NCBI GenBank assembly: GCA_016763735.1
Contig: JAESTE010000117.1
Span: 1 to 46,363, forward strand
Reading direction: 5' to 3'
Length of the DNA stretch: 46,363 bases
From: Nitrospinaceae bacterium
Lineage (GTDB): Bacteria; Nitrospinota; Nitrospinia; Nitrospinales; VA-1
Under the pieces are notes generated by a model. It made no database searches, was not told where the DNA came from, and was given only the letters and a program-made list of their open reading frames with translations. The translations under genes were made by a program, and so were the position numbers. The first letter of the stretch is position 1. Each line of letters begins with the position of its first letter. Below are positions 11,944 to 46,363 of the stretch, piece by piece.

Positions 11944-11979
11944 GGCGAATGACTTTGTGTGGTTGTTTGACAACGAGCA

Positions 11980-12027
11980 GTCGACACCCGAGTCGACGTC
12001 CGAGTTGAAGTCGACTTGAGAGTCGAC
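11980..12027. promoter_or_regulatory. GTCGAC-box cluster 1 (4 copies)
   Basis: Exact GTCGAC at 11980, 11992, 12010 and 12022. The cluster lies 37-84 nt upstream of the minus-strand ATG at 11943. Confidence 0.7.
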
Positions 12028-12089
12028 ACGGATATAATAAAAATGTACCGCCACTGATGATACAAATCCACGCGCCCATACTCTCGAGG

Positions 12090-12470
12090 ATTTCGCCGAG
12101 GTTGGAAAAGTCAAGGTTTGGTCGAAGGTTTCGAAAACTTCAGAACGCGGTCCCTGAGTGATTCCAACAGCAAACGGTTTGGAGTCGACCAGATGAAAAC
12201 GTGACTTTTTCACTTTCTGAAATACTTGAAACTTGGAAGTATTTCTGAAGTATTGGTCAAGTATTTCGTACTTTCCCTCGAGAGACTTGACAAAAACTTG
12301 AGAAATACTTGACAAAAACTTGAGAAATACTTTGTACCGAGATTTTCCTGAAGTCCAATCGAGAGGGGGGGTAGGGTCTTGTTCCCCCCTAACCGATCGG
12401 CATCAAATCGGTGAATAAAAGATGTTCACCATTTGTGACAAAATAAATTAACCGATATGTCAGACTTTGT
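12090..12470. repeat. Left arm of ~1-kb imperfect palindrome
   Basis: The reverse complement aligns with 12632-13005. The core 12322-12400 is ~78/79 identical to 12703-12781, including matching G7/C7 and C6/G6 runs. The outer and inner parts are more diverged. The arm contains GAAATACTT/AAGTATTTC iterons at 12219, 12237, 12259, 12302 and 12324. Confidence 0.85.
12286..12329. repeat. 2 x 22-bp tandem direct repeat (CTTGACAAAAACTTGAGAAATA)
   Basis: Exact adjacent copies at 12286-12307 and 12308-12329, inside the left palindrome arm. Confidence 0.9.
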
Positions 12471-12631
12471 TACGGTAGTAGTAGAGTAGTGCAATGGGTT
12501 AGACATCCTAGACCCCCCCCCATCCTGTACAAAATTTGGGTATTAATCCAGACTAGTCTAGTCCTACTGCGCAAGGTACCATTCAAACATCCACCCGACT
12601 ATCCTGCAAACGTGAACCATACAATAGGTGT

Positions 12632-13005
12632 CACAGTTCCTGACATATCGGTTAATTGATTGTCTTCACGAACGTTGAACTTGTATATTCACCGAAAACC
12701 TACCGGTCGGTTAGGGGGGAACAAGACCCTACCCCCCCTCTCGATTGGACTTCAGGAAAATCTCGGTACAAAGTATTTCTCAAGTATTTCTCAAGTATTT
12801 TCATACTTTTCAACAAGTCCTTCGAGGGAAAACTACAAAATACTTCAGAAATACTTAAGGTTTTCAAGTTTCTGATCAGGTGAAAAAGTATCGATTTCAT
12901 CCGAGGGCTTACAAAACGTTTGCTGTTGGATCGTATCAGGGACGTGTGTTTGGTGGGTTTTGAAATCCTACTGGAAGACCTTGACTTTTCCAACCTCTGC
13001 GAAAT
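12632..13005. repeat. Right arm of ~1-kb imperfect palindrome
   Basis: This is the inverted partner of 12090-12470. It carries iterons at 12771, 12782 and 12848, plus degenerate copies. TTAACCGATATGTCAG (left) is matched by CTGACATATCGGTTAA (right). Confidence 0.85.
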
Positions 13006-13072
13006 TTCCCGCAAGTCTTCCCCAGGTTTCGGCACCCTGGATTGGAACCGGCTGAACCCGAGGGCAGGAGTG

Positions 13073-13122
13073 GTCGACTAAGACGGACAAGAGTCGAAAA
13101 GTCGACATGTCGAAAAGTCGAC
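13073..13122. promoter_or_regulatory. GTCGAC-box cluster 2 (3 copies + 1 near copy)
   Basis: Exact GTCGAC at 13073, 13101 and 13117, with GTCGAA at 13093. The 22-mer GTCGACATGTCGAAAAGTCGAC is identical to 26851-26872. The cluster is upstream of the H3-like gene. Confidence 0.7.
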
Positions 13123-13229
13123 CTCCTTCCCCGGACGACTTGGCTCTCTGCACCCCGACCTGGGGGTCAACAACCTCTGGGGGACACAGTTTGAGGCTTT
13201 CTGAGGTAGTGGTGACTGCGTTCGTTACC

Positions 13230-13868
13230 ATGGCACGTACCAAGCAATCCCGTTCCTCTGCCACCAAAGACAAGGCTGCACTCCCCAAACTCAAGGGCCA
13301 CAAGGCCGGTCCGTCTGGAAAGGTCACGCGTTCGACAATCAAAGGGCCCAAGAAGGGGGCCGGGGGCAAAGGCAAGTCGGGCAAGGTCCAACACTACCGT
13401 CAACCGGGTGATGTGGCGCACGCCAAGGTCAAGGGTTTGGCCCCAGGCGAACCCCAGCCACGTCGCACCAAGGACGGGTTCCTCTTCCGCAAACCGCGCT
13501 CGCACCCGGGCCAGAGGGCCAAGCGGTTCATCAAGAAGCTCCAGATGAGTGTGTTGCCGGTCTCCAGCATGGCCGGGGCACGTCGAGCCTTTGTGGGCGG
13601 GCTGGTGCGCATCAACGCACTGAACATGCGCGTGAGCCGCAGCGCCATGGCCACCGCACAGGAAGCCGTGGAGATGATCTTCCACACCATCGCCACCGAC
13701 GCGTTGTTGACCACTGTGGCCCGAGGACAGAAGACCCTGTCGGTAGGCGACCTGGAGTTGGCCTTCATGCGGTACTCGAGGTCGGGTCAAGGCACCAACA
13801 TGGTGTGGCAAGAGTACCAGTCGCTCAACCCGGACGGCACGTCACTCCAACTGCGTGCGTTGAGTTGA
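13230..13868 (+). CDS. Histone H3-like protein (212 aa)
   Basis: The start was moved to ATG 13230, giving N-terminal MARTKQS (H3 has ARTKQT). VQHYRQPGDVA parallels H3 KPHRYRPGTVA. RVSRSAMATAQEAVEMIFHTIATDALLTTVARGQKTLSVGDLELAFMRY parallels H3 [50 protein letters not shown]. Confidence 0.75.
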   Translation: MARTKQSRSSATKDKAALPKLKGHKAGPSGKVTRSTIKGPKKGAGGKGKSGKVQHYRQPGDVAHAKVKGLAPGEPQPRRTKDGFLFRKPRSHPGQRAKRFIKKLQMSVLPVSSMAGARRAFVGGLVRINALNMRVSRSAMATAQEAVEMIFHTIATDALLTTVARGQKTLSVGDLELAFMRYSRSGQGTNMVWQEYQSLNPDGTSLQLRALS

Positions 13869-13958
13869 TCCAACTTGGGTTGTGACTTGGAACCCCCCGC
13901 CAGTATGAGTACAGCTATAAACACCTATTTGAATTGTACCTGTTGTGTGAGTGCCAAC

Positions 13959-14516
13959 ATGCCGACGGCACGTTTGGCGGACCGAGACGTGGGGTGGAAA
14001 GACAAAATACGGTGCGACCTGGCGCATTCTGAAGTGGTGGACGACCGAGACGTGGCGCAGTTGTGTTCCCGCTTGAAACGGGTGCTGGTGTGGCACGCCA
14101 AAGACCATCTGTTGTTGCGGGGCCATTGCCAACTGGCCGAGTCGCCGAACAAGTCAACCGACGGCTGGATATGGATCATCATCCCGTGCACACGACAAGA
14201 CAAGCAAGACGTGTGGGTGTTGCGCACGCGTCGGTCCGTGACTCAACGCATGGACACAGACGACGTGCGTACGTGCACCCACCTGCAAAACAATCGGTTG
14301 TGGATGTGGATGGTCTTGTTCGCCTGGGGAGTCCACCGTCTACAAGAAACCTTTCGGGTGGCGCCCGATTCACCTGACGCACGGCTGTTGTGGCTGTGGT
14401 CTCAAAACGCCCACAACAACGGGCTGGACTTGGTGCGGTGGGTGCGTAGGTGTTGCGGGGTACTGGCCCGCACACTAGACGTCCTGTGTTCCGTCGACCG
14501 TGGAGCTGTGGCATGA
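13959..14516 (+). CDS. Hypothetical Trp-rich protein (185 aa)
   Basis: The first plausible ATG is at 13959, preceded by TATAAACA at 13916-13923. No motif recognised. Confidence 0.5.
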   Translation: MPTARLADRDVGWKDKIRCDLAHSEVVDDRDVAQLCSRLKRVLVWHAKDHLLLRGHCQLAESPNKSTDGWIWIIIPCTRQDKQDVWVLRTRRSVTQRMDTDDVRTCTHLQNNRLWMWMVLFAWGVHRLQETFRVAPDSPDARLLWLWSQNAHNNGLDLVRWVRRCCGVLARTLDVLCSVDRGAVA

Positions 14517-28204: not shown

Positions 28205-28211
28205 GACGCAT

Positions 28212-28248
28212 GTCGACTCGAGTCGACAGTCGTGAAACATGGCGTCGA
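28212..28248. promoter_or_regulatory. GTCGAC-box cluster 5 (3 copies)
   Basis: Exact GTCGAC at 28212, 28222 and 28243. 28212-28227 is a perfect 16-bp palindrome, GTCGACTCGAGTCGAC. The cluster lies between divergent starts at 28204 (-) and 28239 (+). Confidence 0.65.
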
Positions 28249-31419: not shown

Positions 31420-31526
31420 GTCGACTATGCCCGTGTCGACTCTGAAAGTCGACTCTGAGAATGTCGACTCTTTGGTAACGGATTCAAAGTCGACATCCGA
31501 GTCGACACCTCCCTCGCTGCGTCGAC
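31420..31526. promoter_or_regulatory. GTCGAC-box cluster 6 (7 copies; largest)
   Basis: Exact GTCGAC at 31420, 31435, 31448, 31463, 31489, 31501 and 31521. The cluster lies between divergent starts at 31320 (-) and 31538 (+). Confidence 0.75.
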
Positions 31527-34170: not shown

Positions 34171-34314
34171 AATGAGGTGGTTGCCTGACCAAAGTCAGAC
34201 GACCCTCAGCACAGAGGGAAGATCCTCACCACGTCAAGGTCGTTACGGAGTCGTGAATAGTGCACACAAATGAGTAAAGTACCCCCGTTTCACATCAAGT
34301 ATACCACCCGCACC

Positions 34315-35359
34315 ATGCTCGTTCCGGTCCTCGCCTCTCTCGTGGTCGTCATGTCGGCGACCTCGTTGATCTTGGTGTCGTTCGTCATGAACGGGGATCT
34401 GGTGTTTTCCAACCCGCCCCTGTCCATTCACAACCCCACCAGTACATACAAGGCCACAGTAGACAACGACGACTCTGGGTTCGACATCAAGAAAGGCGAC
34501 ACGCTCCTGGCACGGTTCGACCACACGTCAGGGCTGGTACTTCGTGAGCTGGAAAACCTCACCACCAAGACCGGACAGATACGGTTCCATGAGCTGGACC
34601 GGAACGGCGAGCACTTCGTCTCCATCCGCGCACCTGACGCGTTGGCAGCCGATATCACCTACATCCTCCCCGCAGCAGACGGGTCGACGGGGCATGTGAT
34701 CAAGACGGACGGGGTAGGGCTCTTGAGCTTCACCAACATCACGTCAACCATCATCGACTCGGGTGCGGCAGGGAACCGGTTCAGCGACAACTACTTTGAC
34801 GCCGGGACCGCCGGGGCGGTGGCAGTGAAGAGCACAGGCACCCTTGTCATGACCTCGACCGGGAACACGACCATCAACGCTAACGCCGTCATCCTCAAGG
34901 GTCTGACCTACCCCCCTGGCCGACGGGACAGACGGGCAAGTCATCGGCACCAACGGAGGAGGGATACTGAGCTTTATCACCCCCTCTGGCGCTTCCACCT
35001 ACACACTTGCCGCCACTGTGTTGATCGGGTTCGATCCGGCGCAAACTATGACGTGTGAACTCGCCATCATCAACGGAATGGTAACCATGGACTGTGCGGC
35101 CACAACATTGGGGACCATCGTCGGTGGCGGCGTTGCGTACCTCGCCTCGACGGACACGCTTCCAGTCGCCTTCAGGCCTGTTGCATCGGAGGTGTGGATA
35201 CCGTGGTTTACTAAGTTCAACAACAACCCTACAACAGGGTACTTCACGATCCAGACGGACGGCACTATCCGGATCTTCGCTGCACTCAGCCTTTCGTGGA
35301 CAGGGGGGACGACAAACTGTGGGATTCATCATGGCGGGGCGACGTGGAAGGCGCCGTAA
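34315..35359 (+). pseudogene. Fibre/spike family member A1, interrupted by a +1 frameshift in a C6 run
   Basis: Frame 1 (34315..34914) encodes the TM anchor and first repeat up to GLTYP. Skipping one C at 34915 restores LADGTDGQVIGTNGGGILSF and the conserved C-terminal domain (VTMDC...GGATWKAP) in frame 2, running to the stop at 35359. The C6 run is at 34911-34916. The cause could be sequencing error, pseudogenisation or programmed slippage. Confidence 0.7.
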
Positions 35360-35387
35360 TGAGCCTTCACAAAGGAGAAGGTGAAAG

Positions 35388-35393
35388 AATAAA
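35388..35393 (+). terminator. Candidate polyadenylation hexamer AATAAA
   Basis: It lies 29 nt downstream of the A1 stop at 35359. Confidence 0.3.
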
Positions 35394-35429
35394 GAGAAGT
35401 AATCCAACCTGAGTCTATGCGTCGTCACC

Positions 35430-37961
35430 ATGTTCGGTTCAATTGTTTCCTCTCTCGTGGTCGTCATGTCGGCGACCTCGTTGGTCCTGGTGTCGTTTGT
35501 CATGCACGGAGACCTGACCATGACTGACCCGTCGGACCACATCCGCAACCCCGCCAGCACGTTCCGCGTAACGGTTGAGAATGACGCCGGAAAGGTGGAG
35601 ATGCGGAAGGGGGGCGACGTGCTGCTCCGGCTGGACGACACGAATGGGCTGCAGCTCCTTCCCTTGCAAAACGTAAGCGCCAAGACGGGGCTGGTGCGAT
35701 TCTATGAACTGGCACGTAACGGTGTCCAATACGTGGAGCTGCGTTCTCCTGACGCCTTGGCCGGCAACGTCAGCTTCATTCTGCCGATCGCAGATGGCCT
35801 CAGCGGGTACATCCTGGAGACAGACGGAAATGGCCAGATGTCATGGAACAACCCCCTGACCGTGGACTCCACGCGTATTGCAGATGGGGCGGGCACCACG
35901 TTCATCGACACAGACATCGGCGCCGGGAACATTACTATTGTGGCTGTGTCCGGGCTGACTGCGACAATCACTGGTCCGGCGTCTTACACCAGTACCGGCG
36001 AGACACACATCACCGGCGCCAACGGGGTCATTATCCAAGATCTAACCTACCCCGCGGTGGACGGGACCAGTGGCCAAGTCCTCAGCACAAACGGCGCGGC
36101 CGCGTTGAGCTGGATCAACACCGATGCCGATTCCACCAAGATCACCGACAGCGGGGGCACCACCTTCATCGACACAGATGCAACCTCTGGATTCATCTCT
36201 ATGGTGGCGGCGTCAGGGCTGGCCTCCAGCATCACAGGAACGTCCACCTTCAACAGCAGTGGAGCGATGTCGATAACGAGCGTGGCAAGCATCACACTCT
36301 CAAGTGCTGGGAATGTTATCTTCCAAGGCCAGACCTTCCCAGCAGCGGACGGGACCGTCAACCAAGTCCTCACCACAGATGGAGCGGGAACACTCAGCTG
36401 GGCTGCGGATGGACTGGGTGACGCCACCAGGATCACCGACGGTTCTACCACCTTCATCGACACAGACGCCACCGGGGGCACCATAACGATGTTTGCGGCC
36501 AGTGGATTGGTGTCCAGTATCACGGGCCCCGCCACCCTCAACAGCAGTGGTACCCTGACGTTAAACAGTGTGGCCGGGATCGCGATGACAAGTGCGGGCA
36601 CGATCTCGATTCACGGCATCCAGTACTCGGCGGTTGATGGCAGCTCTGGGCAGGTCATGTACACCAACGGGGCGGCGCAGTTGGCCTTCAAGACCCTGGA
36701 CATCATCACGAACGTGGACGGAACGGCGTCGATTCAAACCGCGGCGGTGGGCAACATCGCGATGAACGCCGGCAGTATAACGATTGCCGCCAACTCCACT
36801 ATCGACCTCAACGCCACGGGCGCCCTGACGTTTTCGAGTGCATCTGTGGCGTTCACAACCACCGGTGGCGGGCTGATAAGTCTCCATGGTCTCTCCCATC
36901 CTCCAGCCGACGGTACCACCGGACAGGTCATGTTTACGGATGGATCGAACACGCTGGGCTTCAAAACCCTGGACATCATCCAGAACGTGGCCGAGACGTC
37001 CTATGTGAAGGCGACCGCCGGCGGGGTGGTCGAGAGCGTTGCCACCTCCACCATGACGTTCGCTGCGACAAATGGCCTGACCATGACTGCCGCGGGGCTC
37101 ACACTCAGCACCACCGGTTCTGGAACGTGCACGATTAATGCCACGGGTCCGTTGCGGATGGACGGCGTGCTCGGAGTGGAATTGTCCAGCGTGGCGGCGA
37201 TAAAGATCCATGGTTTGACCTACCCCGCGGCGGACGGGAGCAACAACCAAGTCCTCGAAACTAACGGAGCGGGGGTGCTCAGTTGGGTTACGCTCAGCGC
37301 CGGTGACGCCACCAGAATAACGGATGGTTCTACCACGTACATTGACACGGACGATACCGGAGGCACCATAACGATGTTTGCGGCCTCTGGACTGGTGTCC
37401 AGCATCACCGGGCCGGCCACCCTCAACAGCAGCGGCACGCTGACGTTGAACAGTGTGGCCGGAATTGCAATGACGAGTGCGGGTGCGATATCGATCCACG
37501 GTTTGACCTACCCCGCCGCAGACGGGACCGCCGACCAAGTCCTCAAAACCGACGGAGCGGGGACGCTCGGTTGGGTGGCCAACGGGGGAATCACCAAGTC
37601 TACATTCACCACAAATCTCACAGGGGCCTCCACGACAATTGAGATAACGTGCTACCTGATGCAGGTCGGCGGAATGGTTACGATGGATTGTTCAAAGATC
37701 CTATTCACCGTGACATCTTCAAACCAGGCGGCTATCGTATCGGACAGTGCCATGGACTCCGCGTTTCGCCCTACAGCCACTACGGGTCCTCAGATCCCCT
37801 GGGTAACTATATCCTCTGGTACGGACGAGGCCGGATTCATTGAAGTGTTGACCACCGGTGTTCTGAAGTTCCATCGAAAAGACAACGCCGTATGGAATAT
37901 GGATGCCGCCAATTGTGGCTGGTACAGAGGATGCGCATCCTGGATCACTAGTTCATTTTAG
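35430..37961 (+). CDS. Fibre/spike family member A2 (843 aa, 7 repeat modules)
   Basis: The N-terminal TM anchor is SLVVVMSATSLVLVSFVM. There are seven [LQ]-[TS]-[YFH]-P-x-x-DG-x-x-x-Q-V-[LM]-x-T-[DN]-G-x-x-x-L-[SGA]-[WF] motifs, separated by ~70-110-aa Thr/Gly/Ser-rich modules. The conserved C-terminal domain is VTMDC...FRP...GFIEV...LKFHR...GCASW. Confidence 0.85.
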   Translation: MFGSIVSSLVVVMSATSLVLVSFVMHGDLTMTDPSDHIRNPASTFRVTVENDAGKVEMRKGGDVLLRLDDTNGLQLLPLQNVSAKTGLVRFYELARNGVQYVELRSPDALAGNVSFILPIADGLSGYILETDGNGQMSWNNPLTVDSTRIADGAGTTFIDTDIGAGNITIVAVSGLTATITGPASYTSTGETHITGANGVIIQDLTYPAVDGTSGQVLSTNGAAALSWINTDADSTKITDSGGTTFIDTDATSGFISMVAASGLASSITGTSTFNSSGAMSITSVASITLSSAGNVIFQGQTFPAADGTVNQVLTTDGAGTLSWAADGLGDATRITDGSTTFIDTDATGGTITMFAASGLVSSITGPATLNSSGTLTLNSVAGIAMTSAGTISIHGIQYSAVDGSSGQVMYTNGAAQLAFKTLDIITNVDGTASIQTAAVGNIAMNAGSITIAANSTIDLNATGALTFSSASVAFTTTGGGLISLHGLSHPPADGTTGQVMFTDGSNTLGFKTLDIIQNVAETSYVKATAGGVVESVATSTMTFAATNGLTMTAAGLTLSTTGSGTCTINATGPLRMDGVLGVELSSVAAIKIHGLTYPAADGSNNQVLETNGAGVLSWVTLSAGDATRITDGSTTYIDTDDTGGTITMFAASGLVSSITGPATLNSSGTLTLNSVAGIAMTSAGAISIHGLTYPAADGTADQVLKTDGAGTLGWVANGGITKSTFTTNLTGASTTIEITCYLMQVGGMVTMDCSKILFTVTSSNQAAIVSDSAMDSAFRPTATTGPQIPWVTISSGTDEAGFIEVLTTGVLKFHRKDNAVWNMDAANCGWYRGCASWITSSF
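36417..36617 (+). repeat. Internal duplication copy 1 within A2 (201 bp)
   Basis: It encodes GDATRITDGSTTFIDTDATGGTITMFAASGLVSSITGPATLNSSGTLTLNSVAGIAMTSAGTISIHG. The partner copy is at 37302-37502. Confidence 0.9.
37302..37502 (+). repeat. Internal duplication copy 2 within A2 (201 bp)
   Basis: By my manual alignment there are ~33 nt differences from copy 1 but only 3 of 67 codons are non-synonymous (F/Y, A/D, T/A). Confidence 0.9.
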
Positions 37962-38089
37962 TACCGTACGGAAAAGAATATACATGCCTCGTGCAACAAC
38001 CTACACATGCACACAATGGCTCGATCACTCCTGTCGTCCAGGACGCCACACCTTGGCATAAACCACTATTAATTGTCCCGGCGGTACCC

Positions 38090-39454
38090 TCAGATGGTCC
38101 ACGACGCAGACCCACGGTACAGCGTACAGTTGGTCGCCCCTCCGGCCCACCCAGACGTGTCGTCTCTCCAGAACTTCAGGGTGCCTCCGGGGTGGACTTC
38201 CACAAACCCACGGCCCTGTTCGCCTGTGTACGCGTGCATCCACGAGAGGTGGGGCACAGATCTGGCGTCGGGACGGAACCCCTCAGGCAACTTGTCCATC
38301 GTATCCAGAGACGGCTGCGGCAGCGGGTCCACGTCGAACGTGACTTGCTGGCAATCCATGAACACCGTGCTGCGGATCTTGAGCAGCTCACACATGAGAA
38401 CCGCAGGGGACATACCCACCGTCCCCGAGATGGTGGTCACGAAGAGTGCTTCGGTGAAGGTCTTGGACCAGCTCAGTTTGTGTTTCCCGTTGGTTGTCAA
38501 CACCTCGTTCTTGGTGCCGTCTCTGGACGGGTATTCCAGTCCTTGAATCTTGACGTGGCCGAACGGAGCCTCGATCGTCACGTGAGACGCCGACCCCAGG
38601 ATGTGGACATCTGCGCCGTCCAGCCGTAGGGTAGATCGCGGTGCACTGGCCCACACCATGCCTTCGCTGCTGGTGAGGGTCAAGGACATGTTGGACTTGA
38701 TGAACACCGTGCTCATGGCGGAGATTGTTGAGATGGATTGCTGTGCGCGGACCACAATGTTGCGGGCGGCCGTGGCCTCGATGTCTCCCGTGGCGAGAGT
38801 GGACACACGGGTGTCGTCGGTGCCGTCGCTGAGCGAGGTGCAATCGCACGTGGGCGCAGGACCAGGGGCCGGAGCGTTGGTGGGCAACCCCGTTTGGGTG
38901 GGGACGGTGGTGGGGACAGTGGTCGCGGGGGCAGTGGTGGGTGCTTCCGTGGCCACCGGCGTGAACAACAACAGCGGGTCTGCCCAGTACGTGTTGCCTG
39001 TCCCGTCGTTGACCAGGACGTAGCCGGGGTGTGCCGCGTTGGAGGGCAGGGTGAGCACCACATCGTCGACGTGAGTGGTCGGGGCGCGAAGGGTGAGGAA
39101 CGCACTGCCGTTCTCCGCCTGGGCAGACTGGAACTGCAACTGCCCGGTGCGGGGACCGAGAGCCAGGATCTGGACCCCAGAGGGACCGCCAAACTGCACC
39201 ACGTCATGGGCGTTGGCACGAATCGTGATTTGGGGGGCGGTGTGAGGCGGTCCAGCGGCGTACAATCCAGTGTGAGGGGGATCGGTGACGTCGCAACCAA
39301 TACTCAGCAGGGTTTCCCATATAAGCGTAGAGTTCTTTGGGAACATGGCAGGCGTGCCAATCTGTCCGATGGACGGGGGGACCCGAGACACGACCACGAA
39401 TCCAGCGCCGGTGAGGACACCGATGAAAAGCATAAGCGGGATGAGAGCAACCAT
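38090..39454 (-). CDS. Fibre/spike family member B1 (454 aa)
   Basis: The N-terminal TM anchor is MVALIPLMLFIGVLTGAGFVVV. One degenerate and one canonical motif are present (GLEYPSRDGTKNEVLTTNGKHKLSW). There is a P/T-rich linker followed by C-x-C (PAPTCDCT). The family C-terminal domain is VFMDC...FRP...GFVEV...LKFWR...GSASW. Confidence 0.8.
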   Translation of the reverse strand: MVALIPLMLFIGVLTGAGFVVVSRVPPSIGQIGTPAMFPKNSTLIWETLLSIGCDVTDPPHTGLYAAGPPHTAPQITIRANAHDVVQFGGPSGVQILALGPRTGQLQFQSAQAENGSAFLTLRAPTTHVDDVVLTLPSNAAHPGYVLVNDGTGNTYWADPLLLFTPVATEAPTTAPATTVPTTVPTQTGLPTNAPAPGPAPTCDCTSLSDGTDDTRVSTLATGDIEATAARNIVVRAQQSISTISAMSTVFIKSNMSLTLTSSEGMVWASAPRSTLRLDGADVHILGSASHVTIEAPFGHVKIQGLEYPSRDGTKNEVLTTNGKHKLSWSKTFTEALFVTTISGTVGMSPAVLMCELLKIRSTVFMDCQQVTFDVDPLPQPSLDTMDKLPEGFRPDARSVPHLSWMHAYTGEQGRGFVEVHPGGTLKFWRDDTSGWAGGATNCTLYRGSASWTI

Positions 39455-39574
39455 GATGACAGGTTGGAAGTTGAGTTACTGGAACGAGTGTGTTTGATTC
39501 TTGACGGTGATGTACGATTAGGCGGACTTGGTGGTCAGGCGAATGGATTTGTGTGGTGTTGGCACACCAGACAG

Positions 39575-39632
39575 AGTCGACATGCAGTAAAATGTCGACA
39601 TTTGACCGAGTCGACACATGGAAAAGTGTCGA
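39575..39632. promoter_or_regulatory. GTCGAC-box cluster 7 (4 copies)
   Basis: Exact GTCGAC at 39575, 39593, 39609 and 39627. The cluster lies between divergent starts at 39454 (-) and 39780 (+). AATGGATTTGT at 39541-39551 flanks it. Confidence 0.7.
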
Positions 39633-39779
39633 CTTTGCGTTATGACAGTCATACGCACACGGTCGCGTGCTGTGTGTCCTCCTCTACAATGACATTGCGC
39701 TTCGTCATAAGAGTTGTAAACATGAGTAAATTCGCCTATCCGCCCTGTCGTGTACTGCTACCGACAGACAACCTCCAAG

Positions 39780-41099
39780 ATGACGTTTGTCATCGCAGCC
39801 AGCGGCCTAGTGGCCGTGTGCTCCTTCACCTCGCTCATACTGGTCGCGTTCGTTATGAACGGAGACCTGGCCATCACCGACCCACCAGACCACATCCGCA
39901 ACCCTGCCAGCACGTACCGTGTGACAGTCGAGGACGACGGCGGAAAGGTCGAGATCAAGAAAGGATCCGATGTCTTGTTTCGACTGGACACCGCAGAAGG
40001 CATGCAGCTTCTGCCTCTTCAGAACCTCACCAAGAAGACAGGACAATTGTCGTTCCACGAACTGGCCCGCAACGGTGCCCACTACGTGTCCCTGCGTTCG
40101 CCAGATGCTCTGGCCGCCAACGTCAGCTACATCCTCCCCATAGCCGACGGCATTGCCAACGCTGTTCTCAAGACCGACGCGGCCGGGCAGATGGCCTGGA
40201 CCGCCACGGCGTTCGATTCCACCAGGATCCAAGACACGGCCGGTACCACGTTCATTGACACCGACGTCGCCTCGGGGAACATCACGGTGACGGCCCTGTC
40301 GGGTTTCACGCAGACGATCACCGGGTCGGCGTCCTTCACCAGTACCCACGAGACCCATATCACTGGCGATACCGGACTTGTTCTACAAGACCTTACGTTC
40401 CCGTCGGCCGACGGCACGTCTGGCCAAGCCATCACCACAGACGGAGCCGGGCTTCTGAGCTTCAGCACCGTATCCTCCAACAGCAAGATCATCGACTCGG
40501 CTGCCGCAGGCACCACTGCAAGTGGTGCATACTTCGACACCACCACTGCGAGTGCCGTTGCCGCCGCCAGCACAGGCACGATCACCATGACTTCCACGGG
40601 TACCTTCAACGTTGTAGCCAGCGCCGTTGTCCTGGATGGTCTCACCTACCCCACTTCTGACGGAACCAGTGGACAATCAATCACCACTGACGGGGCGGGG
40701 ACGCTGTCCTTTACCACTGTGGGTGGCGGTAGTGATGTGACGGCGGTGTACACAAGTATTCTCACCGGGGCAACCACCGGGAACATCACCTGTAACTTTG
40801 GCAAAAGCAACACATTCGTCACGATGGACTGCTCAGAGACCTTCCTCACCATGACCGGCCCCGGAGGCCCCACGTCCCTCGTCGCTGCAGTCGCGATCCC
40901 AGCGGCATACGTCCCGACAGGCAGCGACTTCACTGGGCCCTGGATGATGCAAGTTACCAGTACCATTGAGGTGGGATACATTACTGTGTCATCGTCAGGC
41001 ACCCTCACGTTCTGGCGTGCCGCTGCCGCTACGTGGACTGGCGATGCACTGACCTCGGGACCACACCACGGTTCGGCGACATGGCAGTTCGGTGCATAA
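39780..41099 (+). CDS. Fibre/spike family member A3 (439 aa, 3 repeat modules)
   Basis: The track start at 39750 is GTG; the first ATG is at 39780 (MTFVIAASGLVAVCSFTSLILVAFVM). The N-terminal 140 aa are closely similar to A1 and A2. The motifs are DLTFPSADGTSGQAITTDGAGLLSF and GLTYPTSDGTSGQSITTDGAGTLSF. The C-terminal domain is VTMDC...GSATW. Confidence 0.8.
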   Translation: MTFVIAASGLVAVCSFTSLILVAFVMNGDLAITDPPDHIRNPASTYRVTVEDDGGKVEIKKGSDVLFRLDTAEGMQLLPLQNLTKKTGQLSFHELARNGAHYVSLRSPDALAANVSYILPIADGIANAVLKTDAAGQMAWTATAFDSTRIQDTAGTTFIDTDVASGNITVTALSGFTQTITGSASFTSTHETHITGDTGLVLQDLTFPSADGTSGQAITTDGAGLLSFSTVSSNSKIIDSAAAGTTASGAYFDTTTASAVAAASTGTITMTSTGTFNVVASAVVLDGLTYPTSDGTSGQSITTDGAGTLSFTTVGGGSDVTAVYTSILTGATTGNITCNFGKSNTFVTMDCSETFLTMTGPGGPTSLVAAVAIPAAYVPTGSDFTGPWMMQVTSTIEVGYITVSSSGTLTFWRAAAATWTGDALTSGPHHGSATWQFGA

Positions 41100-41162
41100 C
41101 AGCTGACGCGTGGTTTCACACTCCGTGTATTCCAGTACATAAACGTTGCGTTCTATCACGTG

Positions 41163-41618
41163 TTAGTCAATGGTCACACCAATGATCTCCACCTCCAGTG
41201 GCAACGCATTGAATATGGCCTTGGCGTGGGCGTCTGCCGCTTCCCACGTGGTATGGATCTTGGACGTGATGTGGAAATCACGCATGAACACTTTGTCGTT
41301 GGAGAACAGCGAGGACATGTATGTCTCACGGGTCTTCTGGAGGGCCTTGGCGTCCTTGTCGCACACTATCATCCAAACGTCGTGGCGTTCGGGTTCGCCC
41401 TTGGGAGTAAACGTGTTCACCTTCACGCGGTCGATGGTGATGGTCTTTGTGGCCCACTCAGCCAACACGTTTGATGCTATCGTTACTAGTTCTGGCACCT
41501 TCACTTCGCCGCCCGAGTAGCACAGGGTCACATGAGACGGTCCGCCCTTGCTGGGTTTGAACGGAGAGTTCTCGGTCTCGGCACCCTTGCACCACACTGG
41601 CATGAAAATACCCGACAT
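41163..41618 (-). CDS. Candidate 2H phosphoesterase (LigT/AKAP7/ns2-like), 151 aa
   Basis: There are two H-x-[ST]-x motifs, SHVTL (aa 28-32) and FHITS (aa 115-119), 87 residues apart. E. coli LigT has ~82 between its two H-x-T motifs. The size is slightly small for the fold. Confidence 0.55.
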   Translation of the reverse strand: MSGIFMPVWCKGAETENSPFKPSKGGPSHVTLCYSGGEVKVPELVTIASNVLAEWATKTITIDRVKVNTFTPKGEPERHDVWMIVCDKDAKALQKTRETYMSSLFSNDKVFMRDFHITSKIHTTWEAADAHAKAIFNALPLEVEIIGVTID

Positions 41619-41738
41619 GGTGCACGAACTCTGGGCATCACCTCACTGACTTGGGCCAGGCCAAGTACATAAGTTTGGACTCGTCAGTACGAAACGACAA
41701 CACTTAACTTGGTCTGTGCACTTCGACAGGTGCGCACC

Positions 41739-42122
41739 ATGTTTAACCTTTGCGCTCGTGCCAAGCCTGTGAAACGAAAACCCGTAGTCATCTCGGAGAA
41801 GGCTGAACGTATCATGCGTGAAATCGAAGAACACTTCGCAATATGGAAGACAATCCTGCCAGCCTTCAACCTTGCCGAAGTGAATGGCGAGGACGCCCAT
41901 TCAGTGCCTGGTGTAGCAGCCCACCTGGCAAGGCAGCAAGCCTTCGTCGACAATTATCTCATTTCAAGAGATGCCTGCAAGAAGGCCAAAAGATGCACCG
42001 AATGCGCCAAATTCAGGTGCGGTGTCCACCTCGACCACTTTGGAAGTCTGGACACTGGTTGTCCCGGTGGGCTGTGTGTGAGCGCCAAGAAGAAGCAAGA
42101 CGCACGTCGAGCCATGTATTGA
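41739..42122 (+). CDS. Hypothetical small protein (127 aa) with C-terminal Cys cluster
   Basis: The track start at 41709 is TTG; the first ATG is at 41739 (MFNLCARAKP...). It contains CKKAKRCTECAKFRCGVHLDH...C. Confidence 0.45.
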   Translation: MFNLCARAKPVKRKPVVISEKAERIMREIEEHFAIWKTILPAFNLAEVNGEDAHSVPGVAAHLARQQAFVDNYLISRDACKKAKRCTECAKFRCGVHLDHFGSLDTGCPGGLCVSAKKKQDARRAMY

Positions 42123-42154
42123 AATACAATCCTCTGACACACACACTAACGCGT

Positions 42155-43375
42155 TCACAGTCCCTCGGGCCCGGTGATCCAGGTGGCCGTGCCGCGAGAC
42201 AGGCCACACCCGGTGACCCCGGCGGCCCATGGCGCCTCCCCGTCGCGCCAGAACTGCACACTGCCCTCAGGGCTGATCTCTATGAAGCCTAGGGCCGTCA
42301 CGCCTGCGTACTGCAACACCCATGTGCTGCGGATCGGGAACCCGGCAGTGGGACGGAACCCGTCAAAGATAGGGATGAACATGTTGAGCGACGACTGGTC
42401 TATCGGCCCCATGTCAAAGGTGTGGCGCACACAGTCCATGGTGACCTGGGAATGAACCCGGACCAAGGTGCACACCATGGCCAGCGCTGACATGTTGGTG
42501 GTGCCACTCAAGTCACTGGACATGGTAACCGTGGAGTACCAGCGCCGCCACTCCAGCTGGGAGTGCCCGTTAGTGGTGAGGTGTTCGCCCTGTTCTCCGT
42601 CCACAGAAGGGTACGCCAGTCCCTGGATCTTGACGAACCCACTGGTGGTGGCGTTGATGGTGACGTTGGCCGCGGTGGCCTTAATGTGCACATTGGTCCC
42701 GTCCACACTGGTGTTGCCCTCCACTCCATGTATCGTGACGGAGTGCCCAGCCATGAAAGTGATGTCCTGCTCGGCGGTACCTTGGAGCGACTGGAACACA
42801 TTGACGGCTGAGATCCCCGCCGTCAGTGCCCCGTCGCCAATGGCCGTGCACTCGCACTGGGCCGGCGCAGCTGTGGCCACAGGACCGTTGGTGGGCAGGG
42901 GCGTGGAGGTGGGAAGAGGGGTGCCAGGTACAGGAACCGACGGATCGGAGGGGCACCGGACACACTGGTCCTGTGGGTCGACCCAGTACGTGGTGCCCGT
43001 TCCGTCGTTGGCCAACAGAGAGCCTGGGATCACTGCCGGGTGGGCCGGCAACGAGAGGATGAGGTCGTGGTCCATTTCGCGAGGGGCGCGCAACACGTAC
43101 GACCCGGTGCCGTTTACCGAAGGAACCGACTGGAGTCGAATCTGTCCGGCGAAAGGACCTCGCGCCAGGAACTCTGCCCCGACGGAGTCAGCCAGACGAA
43201 GGACCTTGTGATGGTCCACATGGAAGGTTATCCCTGCCCCTGCGTCGTGTTCGACGTAGATCCCCGTGTTGAGCAACACGTTCCACAGCGATGTGGCGTT
43301 GGTGCCAGACAGGGCGGTGTAGCCCACCCCGGCGGTGATGCACGCGACAACGGCTAAAGGTACCATGGCGATCAT
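42155..43375 (-). CDS. Fibre/spike family member B2 (~406 aa)
   Basis: The track start at 43405 is TTG. ATGs are at 43375 (MIAMVPLAVVACITAG) and 43366. The architecture matches B1: TM anchor, P/T-rich linker with C-x-C (PAQCECT), GLAYPSVDGEQGEHLTTNGHSQLEW, and C-terminal VTMDC...FRP...GFIEI...VQFWR...GTATW. Confidence 0.8.
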   Translation of the reverse strand: MIAMVPLAVVACITAGVGYTALSGTNATSLWNVLLNTGIYVEHDAGAGITFHVDHHKVLRLADSVGAEFLARGPFAGQIRLQSVPSVNGTGSYVLRAPREMDHDLILSLPAHPAVIPGSLLANDGTGTTYWVDPQDQCVRCPSDPSVPVPGTPLPTSTPLPTNGPVATAAPAQCECTAIGDGALTAGISAVNVFQSLQGTAEQDITFMAGHSVTIHGVEGNTSVDGTNVHIKATAANVTINATTSGFVKIQGLAYPSVDGEQGEHLTTNGHSQLEWRRWYSTVTMSSDLSGTTNMSALAMVCTLVRVHSQVTMDCVRHTFDMGPIDQSSLNMFIPIFDGFRPTAGFPIRSTWVLQYAGVTALGFIEISPEGSVQFWRDGEAPWAAGVTGCGLSRGTATWITGPEGL

Positions 43376-43443: not shown

Positions 43444-43515
43444 GTCGACATCTCCAAGTCGACACTCACATGTCAACTCCGGCAGAGTCAGCATGTGTCG
43501 ATTTTCAGAGTCGAC
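43444..43515. promoter_or_regulatory. GTCGAC-box cluster 8 (3 exact + 3 near copies)
   Basis: Exact GTCGAC at 43444, 43458 and 43510. Near copies are GTCAAC at 43472 and 43524 and GTCGAT at 43497. The cluster lies between divergent starts at 43375 (-) and 43544 (+). AATGGATTTGT sits at 43404-43414. Confidence 0.7.
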
Positions 43516-43543
43516 ATCGGCAAGTCAACTCGCTTGTCCAATC

Positions 43544-43867: not shown

Positions 43868-43915
43868 TACCCGCGACGAGGTGTATGTACATAAATTGCC
43901 ACTTGATACTCACAT

Positions 43916-43947
43916 GTCGACTTTGGTCGAGTCAACATCAAGTCGAC
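43916..43947. promoter_or_regulatory. GTCGAC-box cluster 9 (2 exact + 2 near copies)
   Basis: Exact GTCGAC at 43916 and 43942. Near copies are GTCGAG at 43926 and GTCAAC at 43931. The cluster is 37-68 nt upstream of ATG 43984. Confidence 0.6.
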
Positions 43948-43983
43948 TCTGAAACCTGTGAACCCCACACACTTTCAACCGCC

Positions 43984-44928
43984 ATGTCAGACTCTGTGCT
44001 TACCAAGCGCAACCACCATACAGCGTTCGCGCGACCACCCATCAAGAAGATGCCTGACGTGGACGAGGACAGCGCCTTCATGCTGCTGAACTTGTGGAAC
44101 ACCCGTCACCCCCACACAATCGAGACCGACTTCAAGGCCGACGGGTACACCAACGTGCCCACCCAAGACGCCATCATGACCTCACTAGGCCGTCAGCTCG
44201 AGTACCTCAAGGACGACACGCCCCCGGCGACTCCGCCTCTCGTGACCGTGTCCGACGACGCCGACGTTTGCGCCACATGCAGTGCAGTGGTGGGCACGGG
44301 AGCGCTATGTGACAATGACCACCCGGCCTGTGCGTCGTGCCTGTCCACGTCCACTTGCGGTGGCTGCGGCATTTCTTGGTGCCCCGAGTGCGACACTTGC
44401 GCCAAGTGCCCGGCACATCTGTGTGAGCACTCCGACCACAAGACCCTGTGTCAGTGGTGTGCTATGAGGGATGAAAAGTGCGAAGTATGCGACGGCTCCG
44501 ACCGCATCATTTTTCGTTGCGACGCCAGGCACAATGCCTGCATGGACTGCTTCATCAAGGGCCGGTGCCCCGACTGTGACGCGGCGTGGTGCAAGAAGTG
44601 CGTCTCGTGCTCTGGATGCCAGCGCCATCTATGCGCAAAGCTAGAGTGTGTGCTCGACCTGTGCATCAAGTGCCACGACAAGCACGAGGACGACCTCAAT
44701 GCACAGCGAGTGTTGCTGACCGGGAAGGAGGAGTCCAAGTCTGGTCCTGTCCTCACCCCCCTGGCCAGAGAGAAGAACCTGGACGTTGTGTCGTCCACCA
44801 GTAACAGACATGACTGTGGCTGTGTGCAAACCGTGATCAAGGTCGTGAAGGACAACCACCACGTCGGAGACGACGACCGCACCTGTATGATGTTGGACCG
44901 TCAAGCATCGTGCGCACTGATGCACTGA
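43984..44928 (+). CDS. Cysteine-rich protein with two tandem RING-HC-like fingers (GYTNVP family, paralogue 3)
   Basis: The start was moved to ATG 43984 (MSDSVLTKRNHH...). It has the box IETDFKADGYTNVP. The two fingers are C-x2-C-x9-C-x3-H-x2-C-x2-C-x5-C-x2-C and C-x2-C-x10-C-x3-H-x2-C-x2-C-x5-C-x2-C. Each is followed by W-C-x2-C-x2-C-x2-C. Confidence 0.75.
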   Translation: MSDSVLTKRNHHTAFARPPIKKMPDVDEDSAFMLLNLWNTRHPHTIETDFKADGYTNVPTQDAIMTSLGRQLEYLKDDTPPATPPLVTVSDDADVCATCSAVVGTGALCDNDHPACASCLSTSTCGGCGISWCPECDTCAKCPAHLCEHSDHKTLCQWCAMRDEKCEVCDGSDRIIFRCDARHNACMDCFIKGRCPDCDAAWCKKCVSCSGCQRHLCAKLECVLDLCIKCHDKHEDDLNAQRVLLTGKEESKSGPVLTPLAREKNLDVVSSTSNRHDCGCVQTVIKVVKDNHHVGDDDRTCMMLDRQASCALMH

Positions 44929-45033: not shown

Positions 45034-46363
45034 ATGGCAGCAGTCGGTGGCGGTGCTACTGGGTTTCACGGGGGATATCGGCCGGCGTACCAAGGCATGC
45101 CGCCGAGCAACCCTCAAGTCGATTACCCGCGGCTGCTGAGCGTGGGCCCGGGCCATGGACCCGTGCCGTCCAACTCCGCGGGGGTCTACCCGTCCTCCAA
45201 CCCCTGGGCAGCCTTCTTTGGCAACCCCAAGGGCCCCATCTACCAGGCGCAGGGGTACGAGAAGGAGAACGCCGACCTGCCCGACGCGTACATGGGCCAG
45301 AACTACTTCATGAGCCAGGTCATGATCCGGGAGATCCTCGCTGGCGACTCGTACCTGGTCACCGAGGTGCTGCCCTGGCAGAAGTCGGAAGACAAGGACG
45401 AGCTGCGCTGGGACGTGATCACGTTCAACGACAACTTGTTGGGCAGACGGGCGGAGGAGTCCGTGTCCCGTATGCTCAGCTACCAGCGTCACGAAGAGAG
45501 CGCTGGGTTCGTGAGCTACGGTGTGGCCATGATCCTGGAGTCGGGTTTCTACAACACGGCTCAAGGCAAGATGCACTACGCCATGAACCTGCGCCAGATC
45601 TCCAACGCCACGGTGTCCACGGCATGCTTGGGCGCGGCCCAGGCCATTCTCAACCCCAAGGCCCCCTACGACGGGCTTAACCACAAGATGGACAGCGCCC
45701 TGCCCGACACCGAGTTCTTCAAACTGCTGGAACAGGAACGTGACGACTGGGGCATGGCACACGACACTACCTACGGTGTCAACCTCAGCCTCGACATGAT
45801 GAAGCGCAAGCTGGCGGCCCGTGGCGTCACCCCGAACTACGTGATCGCCCCCGCCGGCATGGCCAAGTTCCTCGAGTTCGGTCGCCCCGAGTTCCAGGGC
45901 AAGTCGGGCAACCCTATCGGATCTCTTAACGGCATCGAACGCGTCCGCGAGAGCAAGTCTGTGCCCATTGGCGAGGGCCGTGACCCCATCGACCCCTTCT
46001 TCCAGACCCGTACCATTGGCAGCTACTACAAGCTGTCGGCCGCGGCCTGCCGTGACGTCCCTGCCCAGTTCTACACCACTTCCATGCGCTCCATCTACGC
46101 GTGGTCCGAAGACGCCAACGGGTGGAAGAAACACACCCTGGCCAAGACCATCAAGGCCAGTGGCATCGTGGACAGCGAATGGGGACTGCGCGGGCTGGGC
46201 GAACGCTTCTTCGCGTCGTACCCGACCTGGGGCAAGTTCCTCAAAGACACAGACTTCCTGGCTCCTGTCGTCAAGGGCATCATGGAGAAGAAGAGTCTGG
46301 GCGCACTGCGTCGTATCATGGAACTTGACGGGGATGGCCTCGCCACAGTCCAGGTCCAAGGAC
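45034..46363 (+). CDS. Open-ended CDS (>443 codons, continues past window end); candidate abundant structural protein
   Basis: Frame 1 from ATG 45034 is open to the window end. It reads MAAVGGGATGFHGGYRPAYQGMPPSNP...WDVITFNDNLLGRRAEESVSRMLSYQRHEESAGFVSYGVAMILESGFYNTAQGKMHYAMNLRQI... It is missing from the ORF track because it has no stop. Composition is protein-like with a strong C/G-ending codon bias. The listed 572-aa minus-strand ORF 44641..46359 is its antisense. Confidence 0.75.
   Translation, partial: MAAVGGGATGFHGGYRPAYQGMPPSNPQVDYPRLLSVGPGHGPVPSNSAGVYPSSNPWAAFFGNPKGPIYQAQGYEKENADLPDAYMGQNYFMSQVMIREILAGDSYLVTEVLPWQKSEDKDELRWDVITFNDNLLGRRAEESVSRMLSYQRHEESAGFVSYGVAMILESGFYNTAQGKMHYAMNLRQISNATVSTACLGAAQAILNPKAPYDGLNHKMDSALPDTEFFKLLEQERDDWGMAHDTTYGVNLSLDMMKRKLAARGVTPNYVIAPAGMAKFLEFGRPEFQGKSGNPIGSLNGIERVRESKSVPIGEGRDPIDPFFQTRTIGSYYKLSAAACRDVPAQFYTTSMRSIYAWSEDANGWKKHTLAKTIKASGIVDSEWGLRGLGERFFASYPTWGKFLKDTDFLAPVVKGIMEKKSLGALRRIMELDGDGLATVQVQG

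Follow-up and report, generated by a model that had tools for sequence, protein, structure and literature searches.

Fibre-like proteins with a hydrophobic N-terminus, phage-type stalk modules and a predicted fibre-head knob in a herpes-like, probable mirusvirus genome fragment

Introduction

The closest described counterparts of the proteins considered here are the receptor-binding proteins (RBPs) of lactococcal siphophages, the tail fibres of certain marine and Pseudomonas phages, and the attachment fibres of several eukaryotic viruses. The five proteins in question, designated A1, A2, A3, B1, and B2, are encoded at positions 34,315 to 43,375 of a 46,363-nucleotide stretch of DNA (contig JAESTE010000117.1; the whole stretch is hereafter called the window). 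Each combines a hydrophobic N-terminus, a stalk of phage tail-fibre-type modules, and a C-terminal knob for which a viral fibre-head fold is predicted.

The lactococcal RBPs (TP901-1 ORF49/BppL, p2 ORF18, and bIL170) are the best structural matches to the knob and, like the window proteins, have their head at the C-terminus, borne by a neck or stalk. Sequence identity is, however, only 11%–17%; the N-terminal shoulder or stem of these RBPs docks in the baseplate, a membrane anchor is absent, and the stalks are short and devoid of YPxxDGxxGQ modules. Closer counterparts of the stalk occur in gp28 of the T7-like cyanophage P-SCSP1u, in PA5oct-like Pseudomonas phages, and in uncultured marine phages, all of which share the first ('alpha') module of the window proteins (...G.IRF.E..NG..YV.LKAP......LP.ADG..GQ.L.TDG.G.LSW). 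In P-SCSP1u gp28, the trimeric fibre carries this module distally, towards the receptor. The phage fibres differ in that they begin with a tail-docking region instead of a hydrophobic anchor, and many carry a peptidase S74 chaperone or a different tip at their end.

Adenovirus fibre, reovirus sigma1, Zav_19, and Marseilleviridae NMV_189 share the 'fibre head' fold of the window knob. These proteins follow an attachment logic of stalk plus trimeric knob, which is also the logic proposed for the window proteins. Fibres of the adenovirus type, however, belong to non-enveloped capsids, to which they are attached through protein–protein contacts (penton base, capsomer), in contrast with the predicted transmembrane (TM) segment found here in a herpes-like genome; sequence similarity of the window proteins to the adenovirus, reovirus, Zav_19, or NMV_189 fibres was not detected. 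The fold has been extended to virophage and Marseilleviridae and is stated to be found in non-enveloped icosahedral virions (bioRxiv 10.1101/2023.01.23.525297).

Among herpes-type viruses, gp42 of Epstein–Barr virus and UL45 of herpes simplex virus join a type II signal anchor to a C-terminal binding domain; they share no homology with the window proteins, and the analogy is functional only, gp42 being a receptor-binding protein (PMC5155155). Both have C-type-lectin-like heads and lack a repetitive fibre stalk or phage-type modules. Literature searches returned no description of such fibre proteins in mirusviruses or herpes-like viruses, and the main text of the two main genomic mirusvirus surveys makes no mention of fibres, glycoproteins, or transmembrane attachment proteins. 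Judged from sequence, what appears new is that a herpes-like virus carries a known receptor-binding architecture on a predicted membrane anchor.

The reading preferred here, put forward with evenly balanced confidence, is that the five proteins are trimeric, signal-anchored receptor-binding fibres whose bases are conserved and whose tips diverge, and which sit on a viral envelope or on the membrane of the infected cell. The sequences and models directly support the paralogy and modular anatomy of the proteins, the knob fold, the kinship of the stalk modules with those of phage tail fibres, and the herpes- or mirus-type surroundings of the genes; how the proteins sit in the membrane, whether they form trimers, belong to the virion, and bind receptors, and whether the ectodomain came from phages are matters of inference.

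A family of five paralogous genes

The paralogy of the five genes is far beyond chance. In blastp comparisons, the A-type proteins are 39%–48% identical to one another (E 1e-65 to 1e-118) and B1 is 34% identical to B2 (E 4e-84), while A- and B-type proteins share 24%–31% identity (E 1e-18 to 6e-29). A sequence-only reading of this DNA had described the genes as a single cassette; the family of five stands, but not as an unbroken run, as two unrelated small genes separate A3 from B2. Likewise, the gene boundaries it gave hold for A2, B1, A3, and B2, which are intact open reading frames (ORFs), but not for A1, the frame of which is split. No sixth paralogue was found elsewhere in the 46-kb window.

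Three of the genes lie on the plus strand. A1 (34315..35359) comprises a TM segment (34315–34392), an alpha module (34540–34731), one repeat module (34732–34975), and the knob (34976–35356). A2 (35430..37961), the longest paralogue at 843 amino acids, has its TM segment at 35430–35507, its alpha module at 35655–35846, six repeats at 35847–37574, and its knob at 37575–37958. In A3 (39780..41099; 439 amino acids), the protein that was modelled, the TM segment (39780–39857) and alpha module (40008–40199) are followed by two repeats (40200–40712) and by the knob (40713..41096). On the minus strand, B1 (38090..39454; 454 amino acids) has a TM segment at 39377–39454, an alpha-type module at 38984–39175, a Pro/Thr linker with CxC plus one long repeat module within 38468–38983, and the knob at 38093–38467. 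The corresponding parts of B2 (42155..43375, minus; 406 amino acids) are a TM segment (43298–43375), an alpha-type module (42983–43174), a Pro/Thr linker with CxxC and CxC plus one repeat module (42548–42982), and the knob (42158–42547).

After the hydrophobic segment comes a base of around 110 residues, which closes with the alpha module (consensus ...TGQIRFHEL.RNG.HYVSLR[AS]PDAL...ILP.ADG..G.VL.TDG.G..SW). As had been noticed earlier, this first module is common to all five paralogues, A1 having IRAP in place of LRAP. The repeat modules beyond it, of which there are six in A2, two in A3, and one each in A1, B1, and B2, are 81–108 amino acids long, rich in Thr, Gly, Ser, and Ala, and end in the motif GLTYPxxDGxxGQVLxT[DN]GxGxLS[WF]. 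Counting with the pattern ...[YL]Px(2-3)DGxxGQxLxT[DN]GxGxLS[WF] includes the alpha module and gives totals of seven for A2, three for A3, and two for each of the others. The Thr/Gly/Ser-rich modules and their end motif had thus been correctly described, with the proviso that the stated range of 2–7 copies applies to totals including alpha and becomes 1–6 beyond it. Alpha and repeat modules have only their terminal 24 residues in common (hhalign probability 97%, E 2e-11). The Pro/Thr linker with CxC that had been ascribed to the B types is present in both: the Pro/Thr/Ala-rich linker contains TCDCT in B1, and CVRC and CEC in B2.

Within the A type, the base is 47%–69% identical and the knob 30%–37% identical. 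Divergence of the knob is about equal within and between the A and B types.

The C-terminal knob

The C-terminal domain aligns over some 120 columns, with 14 invariant positions that include a Cys pair (TC...VTMDC), and with NCG usually present. All five proteins share the domain, as had been proposed, but the motifs originally written for it are approximate: A1 reads GYFTI and has no [LV].F.R, and A3 has AYVP for FRP.

Two AlphaFold2 models, both of the A3 monomer, are available for this domain. In the model of full-length A3, computed from a shallow alignment, residues ~320–439 are all-beta with a predicted local distance difference test (pLDDT) score of 75–95; in the second, which covers the last A3 module and the knob and draws on 29 knob homologues, pLDDT within the knob is 84–97. 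When the models were compared with the Protein Data Bank (PDB) by Foldseek—a check suggested alongside the sequence-only reading—50 of the 50 top matches to both were viral fibre or receptor-binding heads (target-normalised TM-scores 0.29–0.62; probability 0.87–1.0). The heads of TP901-1 ORF49, p2 ORF18, and bIL170 scored best (E 3e-5 to 2e-3, probability 1.0). Zav_19 of Zamilon virophage matched the knob with a root-mean-square deviation of 2.4 Å over 124 columns, and other matches in the PDB included reovirus sigma1, many adenovirus knobs, and gp15 of Listeria phage PSA. Among predicted structures in BFVD, the best-scoring matches fell into three groups: adenovirus fibres, phage proteins with minor tail or tail fibre annotations, and uncharacterised proteins from metagenomic 'Pithovirus LCPAC001/LCPAC304' bins. 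Two separate models therefore return the same answer, and the C-terminal domain can be confidently predicted to adopt the viral fibre-head or RBP-head fold.

Sequence relatives of the knob are few. An exhaustive search of 1.84 billion representative proteins with a knob profile hidden Markov model matched the window's four complete copies and, at E 7e-12, P0052, a 185-residue protein of a related virus. Around 40 further matches were weak (E 1e-6 to 1e-3), nearly all of them matching the full length of the profile right at the C-terminal end of the protein; they align convincingly, with RIG..VT, IP..FRP, G.L.I...G.I, and NCG.....SW in common. Of these weak relatives, P0071 carries BppL_N and P0090 a phage tail Collar domain. 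Another of them, P0058, combines an alpha module with the knob and is encoded between portal-side and adaptor genes of a podophage. Knob patterns found no relatives in IMG/VR, and the contig of one further relative, P0063, is uninformative and made up of ORFans. The knob was also considered as the 'conserved jelly-roll protein' of mirusviruses; this is unlikely, because a core gene would yield many profile matches and significant knob matches are confined to two viruses.

Stalk modules and phage tail fibres

The likeness to phage tail-fibre repeats, which had been suggested earlier, is real. A profile of 14 alpha sequences matches the tail fibre gp28 of cyanophage P-SCSP1u (PDB 8I4M) at residues 702–762 (E 1.4e-8). 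This fibre is a trimer, the distal part of which, including the region of residues 702–762, is unresolved in the cryo-electron microscopy map (PMC10575957). Searching cultured phages by tblastn led to annotated tail fibre or minor tail proteins of PA5oct-like jumbo phages; further matches were a structural protein of a Pelagibacter phage and a protein labelled 'intramolecular chaperone'. With A3 as the phmmer query, the only matches besides the virus's own copies were proteins that have the motif modules in common; one of these carries Peptidase_S74 and three carry He_PIG, two of the latter together with TIG. Alpha-module patterns applied to IMG/VR and JGI metagenomes found nothing but phage tail genes, among them genes for a 1279-residue tail protein and a 934-residue tailspike-like protein (contigs L002 and L006), both of which adjoin a tape-measure-like gene. 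Module homologues lie inside the phage tail or structural gene clusters of these two contigs and of a third, L007.

This phage tail-fibre-type stalk module is uncurated yet widespread. Scans of the five paralogues against Pfam, PHROGs, and NCBIfam gave nothing significant, the best being DUF2345 (E 0.045) and one PHROG of unknown function; A2 had no match among PDB sequences, and the repeat-module profile gave only sub-threshold PDB matches (E 0.3–0.6), one of them a protein named Gp5 and another a chain of an adenovirus fibre.

Other hallmarks of phage fibres are missing. A C-terminal Peptidase_S74 chaperone is absent from the five paralogues according to Pfam, PHROG, and NCBIfam, the C-terminus being the knob, and the place of a phage tail-docking N-terminus is taken by the hydrophobic segment. 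No phage-type tape measure, baseplate, or portal was found among the neighbouring genes, which are of eukaryotic-virus type.

The hydrophobic N-terminus

All five proteins begin with an uncharged hydrophobic stretch of 22–25 residues (Kyte–Doolittle 19-residue mean 2.0–2.5), and a Kyte–Doolittle scan revealed no second such segment in any of them. Of the N-terminal TM anchor claimed by the sequence-only reading, the hydrophobic segment is accordingly present throughout the family; its length, which exceeds that of typical cleaved signal peptides, would favour a signal anchor. The conserved Cys pair of the knob and the CxC motifs of the linkers suit an extracytoplasmic location.

Alternatively, the segment could be a cleaved signal peptide, and the proteins soluble, secreted trimeric fibres that dock non-covalently on the particle via the base or act as free lectins or decoys. 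In keeping with this, the segment sits right at the N-terminus and in A2, A3, B1, and B2 has few charges, if any, ahead of it, the related P0052 has a classical n-h-c layout, and the conserved base of about 110 residues could dock as it does in phage fibres. Uncharged stretches of this length, however, go beyond the cores usual in signal peptides, and the A types strongly conserve their TM sequence—A1 and A2 agree in 16 of 26 codons—which would not be expected of a discarded segment. Cleavage is considered quite unlikely, and anchoring by the intact segment is retained in what follows.

Viral genome context

The contig has no terminal repeats at its ends, and the window is therefore a genome fragment. 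Its GC content is around 60%, with third-position GC (GC3) of about 0.75 throughout, and its genes—mostly ORFans, the products of which had no entries on record—are packed with uniform density on both strands. The ORF at 24303..25589 (plus) encodes a herpes-type terminase fragment; of its 17 metagenomic relatives, two have PF02499 (herpesvirus DNA_pack_C). The homology sets in shortly ahead of Walker B (GLRGVTADIIVLEEAAHI) and spans the rest of the C-terminal part; the Walker A exon (PRR.GKT in full-length relatives) is encoded nowhere in the 46 kb, and comparison with PDB sequences gave only a weak match to the Walker B of phage TerL. This agrees with the trans-spliced terminases of most mirusviruses, in which the 'Walker B + nuclease' part is encoded separately from the remainder of the ATPase domain; alloherpesviruses also have a split terminase (PMC12768974), and the split alone is hence not exclusive to mirusviruses. 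The same survey covers 1,257 mirusvirus genomes with a GC range of 25%–72%, and the TULL18-1 assembly set appears in its supplementary tables with a count of 7 (PMC12768974).

A histone-like ORF, at 13107..13868 (plus), matches the Pfam Histone fold (E 4e-6) and contains an internal MARTKQS that resembles the H3 N-terminal tail, with a long basic tail after it. Neither this ORF, the probable true start of which is at 13230, nor its neighbour at 13905..14516 matched PDB sequences, the histone being too divergent. H3 histone is one of the core gene clusters of mirusviruses (PMC10132985). Further genes of eukaryotic type encode a MORN protein and an AN1-like zinc-finger protein. At the contig end, immediately beyond the fibre cassette region, a partial ORF (45034..46362, plus) runs off the sequence; it has no match in a Pfam scan but has a 37% identical relative on the terminase-bearing IMG/VR contig UViG_3300010373_001294, and may be the N-terminal part of a putative major capsid protein.

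The window is very probably a fragment of a herpes-like eukaryotic virus, and it is probable, with somewhat less assurance, that this virus is a mirusvirus. It is this genomic setting that makes the fibre family unusual.

That the contig might instead be cellular DNA—from a protist with an endogenous viral element, or from a bacterium or prophage, in which case the proteins would be cellular adhesins or ordinary phage fibres—is barely credible. In its favour, clear sequence relatives of the stalk modules and knob are known only from phages and bacteria, and mirusvirus-like elements are known to integrate. Against this are ranged the herpes-type split terminase, the H3-like histone with its ARTKQ tail, and the MORN, EGF, and AN1-like zinc-finger proteins; phage structural genes are absent nearby, no tRNA or Rfam RNA was found in the window, and packing and GC3 are uniform. 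A phage origin of the window was rejected on the grounds of its eukaryotic-virus-type context genes and of megablast, which gave no match among phage records. A giant virus such as Pandoravirus, Mollivirus, or Medusavirus, which had been suspected from the GC content, ORFans, MORN protein, and histone, was likewise rejected: no hallmark of nucleocytoplasmic large DNA viruses was found in the window, and its terminase is of herpes type.

Distribution in related viruses

A related virus is represented in Logan sample SRR29965054. One of its contigs (L003) encodes a terminase 56% identical to that of the window and is collinear with window positions 14.5–27 kb, but ends before reaching the cassette. 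On another contig from the sample (L005), P0052 is encoded at 135–692 and consists of a signal-peptide-like segment and a knob, without a stalk. Directly downstream on the same strand (799–1968) lies an A-type homologue that is 35% identical to A2 (E 4e-48); its hydrophobic N-terminus is followed by an alpha module and three or more repeat modules before the contig end cuts it off. By sequence comparison, the fibre family is kept in at least two viruses, at an identity below that of the terminase, and its members there are homologues and putative orthologues. P0052 may be a knob-only member of the family, with a layout comparable to that of the tail-less Marseilleviridae NMV_189. No fibre cassette was found in contig L004.

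A more distant IMG/VR relative (L008; GC 0.58) shows a peculiarity of its own: at 4735–5318, the terminase match falls into two segments 62 nt apart, and the long ORFs are fragmented. Both features are consistent with the spliceosomal introns reported for mirusviruses.

Proposed architecture, function, and alternatives

Under the preferred reading of membrane-anchored receptor-binding fibres, the N-terminal signal anchor would insert the proteins co-translationally, leaving the N-terminus inside and the C-terminus outside. Outward from the membrane would follow the conserved base with its alpha module, the stalk of one to six repeats, and the C-terminal knob, with the CxC-containing Pro/Thr linker of the B types probably O-glycosylated and flexible. 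Trimerisation would be expected, as it occurs in all characterised fibre heads and in the homologous phage fibres. The fibres would ride on the membrane taken up by the particle, and also on infected-cell membranes en route, and the knobs would bind surface receptors—plausibly glycans—of the protist host. Reach would be set by stalk length (two to seven modules in total) together with the flexible Pro/Thr linker, while the conserved bases and TM segments may be points of contact with further components of the envelope or tegument. Five divergent knobs on stalks of differing length would provide several specificities and reaches, and recombination between paralogues plus changes in module number would diversify them.

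Several observations weigh against this reading. An envelope in mirusviruses rests on electron microscopy of one cultured system, in which a tegument or envelope-like coat was suggested (PMC12606086), and descriptions of the fibre-head fold to date concern non-enveloped virions (bioRxiv 10.1101/2023.01.23.525297). The stalk has sequence repeats but a pLDDT below 50 in both monomer models, which leaves a fibrous or beta-helical trimer conjectural. N-glycosylation sequons are not enriched over composition in the paralogues, a result that speaks neither for nor against glycosylation. An Arg directly follows the hydrophobic segment in B1, and P0052 resembles a classical cleavable signal peptide; for these reasons, some members may be secreted rather than anchored. 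What supports assignment to the mirusviruses is the data source together with the terminase and the histone; the capsid gene is putative. Moreover, the family is rare, with significant knob matches only in the window virus and one relative, and no fibre copy occurs in the 20 kb around the terminase and putative capsid gene of L008; it is consequently not a core entry machine of the lineage.

This patchy occurrence also bears on the idea that the proteins are displayed on infected-host membranes and are not parts of the virion, where they might serve in cell–cell adhesion or aggregation that spreads infection, capture of prey or bacteria, superinfection exclusion, or receptor masking. A membrane-targeted ectodomain with a binding knob fits such a role equally well, lack of conservation across relatives is what would be expected of accessory functions, and a large EGF-rich type I surface protein encoded in the window implies that the virus remodels membranes or surfaces. 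The fibre-head fold, however, belongs to a virion attachment protein in every characterised case, and the combination of conserved base and variable tip is typical of virion-mounted receptor-binding proteins. Display confined to the host is on this evidence unlikely, although it merits serious consideration.

The restriction of all known fibre-head carriers to non-enveloped icosahedral virions raises a different prospect, namely that an outer envelope is lacking and that the fibres are rooted in an internal membrane, the capsid, or the tegument, and protrude like vertex spikes. Variation in stalk length would suit protrusion through a shell. HK97-type herpes-like capsids, however, are not known to have an internal membrane, and the outer tegument or envelope-like layer suggested by electron microscopy of a mirusvirus is also at odds with this arrangement, which is held to be very unlikely.

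A bolder form of the envelope-fibre reading is that a lineage of mirusviruses, which are herpes-like viruses of marine protists, mounts phage-derived trimeric fibre-knobs in its lipid envelope via a signal anchor, and that the five genes form an expanded host-range cassette, diversified through duplicated modules and recombining paralogues and perhaps switched through homopolymers. This is advanced only tentatively and seems somewhat more likely to be wrong than right. Were it true, it would provide the first fibre-head receptor-binding fold on an enveloped virion, with an ectodomain captured from tailed phages; even the more general reading of membrane-anchored fibres would extend the fold from non-enveloped capsids to a membrane-anchored setting. 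The building blocks common to marine phage tail fibres and a eukaryotic virus bear on how receptor-binding modules cross virus realms. For mirusviruses, the knob family offers concrete candidate attachment proteins of one lineage. Recombinant knobs could possibly serve as bait or stain for host cells in plankton, and hence as a route to host identification.

Sequence mosaicism and homopolymer differences

The 5′ ends of the A genes are mosaic, the stretches concerned being 34315–34465, 35430–35580, and 39783–39930. A1 and A2 are near-identical over TM codons 8–25, and their first 26 codons contain only 2 synonymous differences. Across codons 27–50, it is A2 and A3 that resemble each other, at 83% nucleotide identity. 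Because identity at the 5′ ends is mosaic in this way, the sequences suggest gene conversion between A paralogues. The earlier description of a rapidly evolving cassette is compatible with these data insofar as module-number variation and the 5′ mosaic fit a diversifying family; 'rapid' is not borne out, the comparison extending to only one other virus.

A1 is split over two frames by a C6 run (34911..34916, plus) that lies within its GLTYP motif; deleting one C yields a 347-residue paralogue, counted from the ATG at 34315. An 8.7-kb contig from another assembly (L001; TULL18-1_SAMN07571238), which is 99.97% identical to the window, has C5 at this position and an intact A1 gene of 362 amino acids, called from an upstream ATG equivalent to window position 34270. 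Use of this alternative start would add MSKVPPFHIKYTTRT, a basic N-terminal tail. Conversely, A2 contains a G5 run in the window (36153..36157, plus) and one extra G in L001, which truncates A2 there to a 330-residue product (P0002). These are the only two indels between the sequences (L001 positions 4637 and 5879), both are differences in homopolymer length, and they place adjacent paralogues in reciprocal states: A1 off and A2 on in the window, A1 on and A2 off in L001. The overlap between window and L001 contains 23 homopolymers of 5 nt or longer; with 10 of them falling within A1 and A2, the location of the changes is not statistically unusual (p ~0.19). Assembly error is as likely an explanation as slipped-strand phase variation.

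Upstream elements and neighbouring genes

The sequence-only reading had also proposed promoter modules shared within the cassette. This does not hold: the motif TGTCGACT occurs in clusters before B1/A3 and before B2, but is missing before A1 and A2, and it precedes many other gene starts genome-wide. The spacer between the divergent B1 and A3 (39455..39779) contains five TGTCGAC(T) copies at 39576–39633, and the cluster upstream of B2 (43444..43516) consists of three exact TGTCGAC copies with GTTGAC and ATCGAC variants. In its fuller form, (A/G)TGTCGACT(C/T)(T/G), the motif lies at gene 5′ ends in clusters of 2–5 copies spaced 11–30 nt apart. Across the window, it occurs at 11980–12028, 13101, 24291–24408, 26851–26888, 28211–28228, 31434–31507, 39576–39633, 43444–43516, and 43915. 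Exact TGTCGAC is found 29 times against an expected 11.9 ± 4.1, the maximum in 100 shuffles being 21. The clustered motif is probably a viral promoter or regulatory element. The MST.. start codons of several ORFs may be artefacts, since they lie inside the motif (ATGTCGAC). Clusters of TGTCGACT also flank a region of about 1.1 kb (~11950–13100) in which the GC content, at about 0.51, is below the 0.60 of the remaining sequence; it contains no convincing ORF, and scans for Rfam families and tRNAs gave nothing there.

Of the two genes between A3 and B2, neither belongs to the fibre family. The first (41163..41618, minus) has a weak Pfam match of the 2H/2′-5′ RNA-ligase-like type (E 0.004), and the second (41739..42122, plus) is without a match.

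Near the opposite end of the window, 1085–6295 (minus) encodes a Cys-rich type I membrane protein of 1736 amino acids with a signal peptide, EGF/teneurin-type repeats, a Pro/Thr stretch, and a C-terminal TM segment. Its gene adjoins that of a 360-residue protein with a hydrophobic N-terminus (3–1085, minus), and the two are further candidates for surface or envelope glycoproteins.

A second paralogous family, of Cys-rich, CxxC-repeat, zinc-ribbon-like proteins, is encoded at 10570–11943 (minus), 25670–26143 (plus), and 43885–44928 (plus). Its members have an N-terminal ...TTW....HI..DL..AGYTNVP... in common (blastp E 1e-24, 8e-10, and 2e-5), and one of them lies directly downstream of the fibre cassette.

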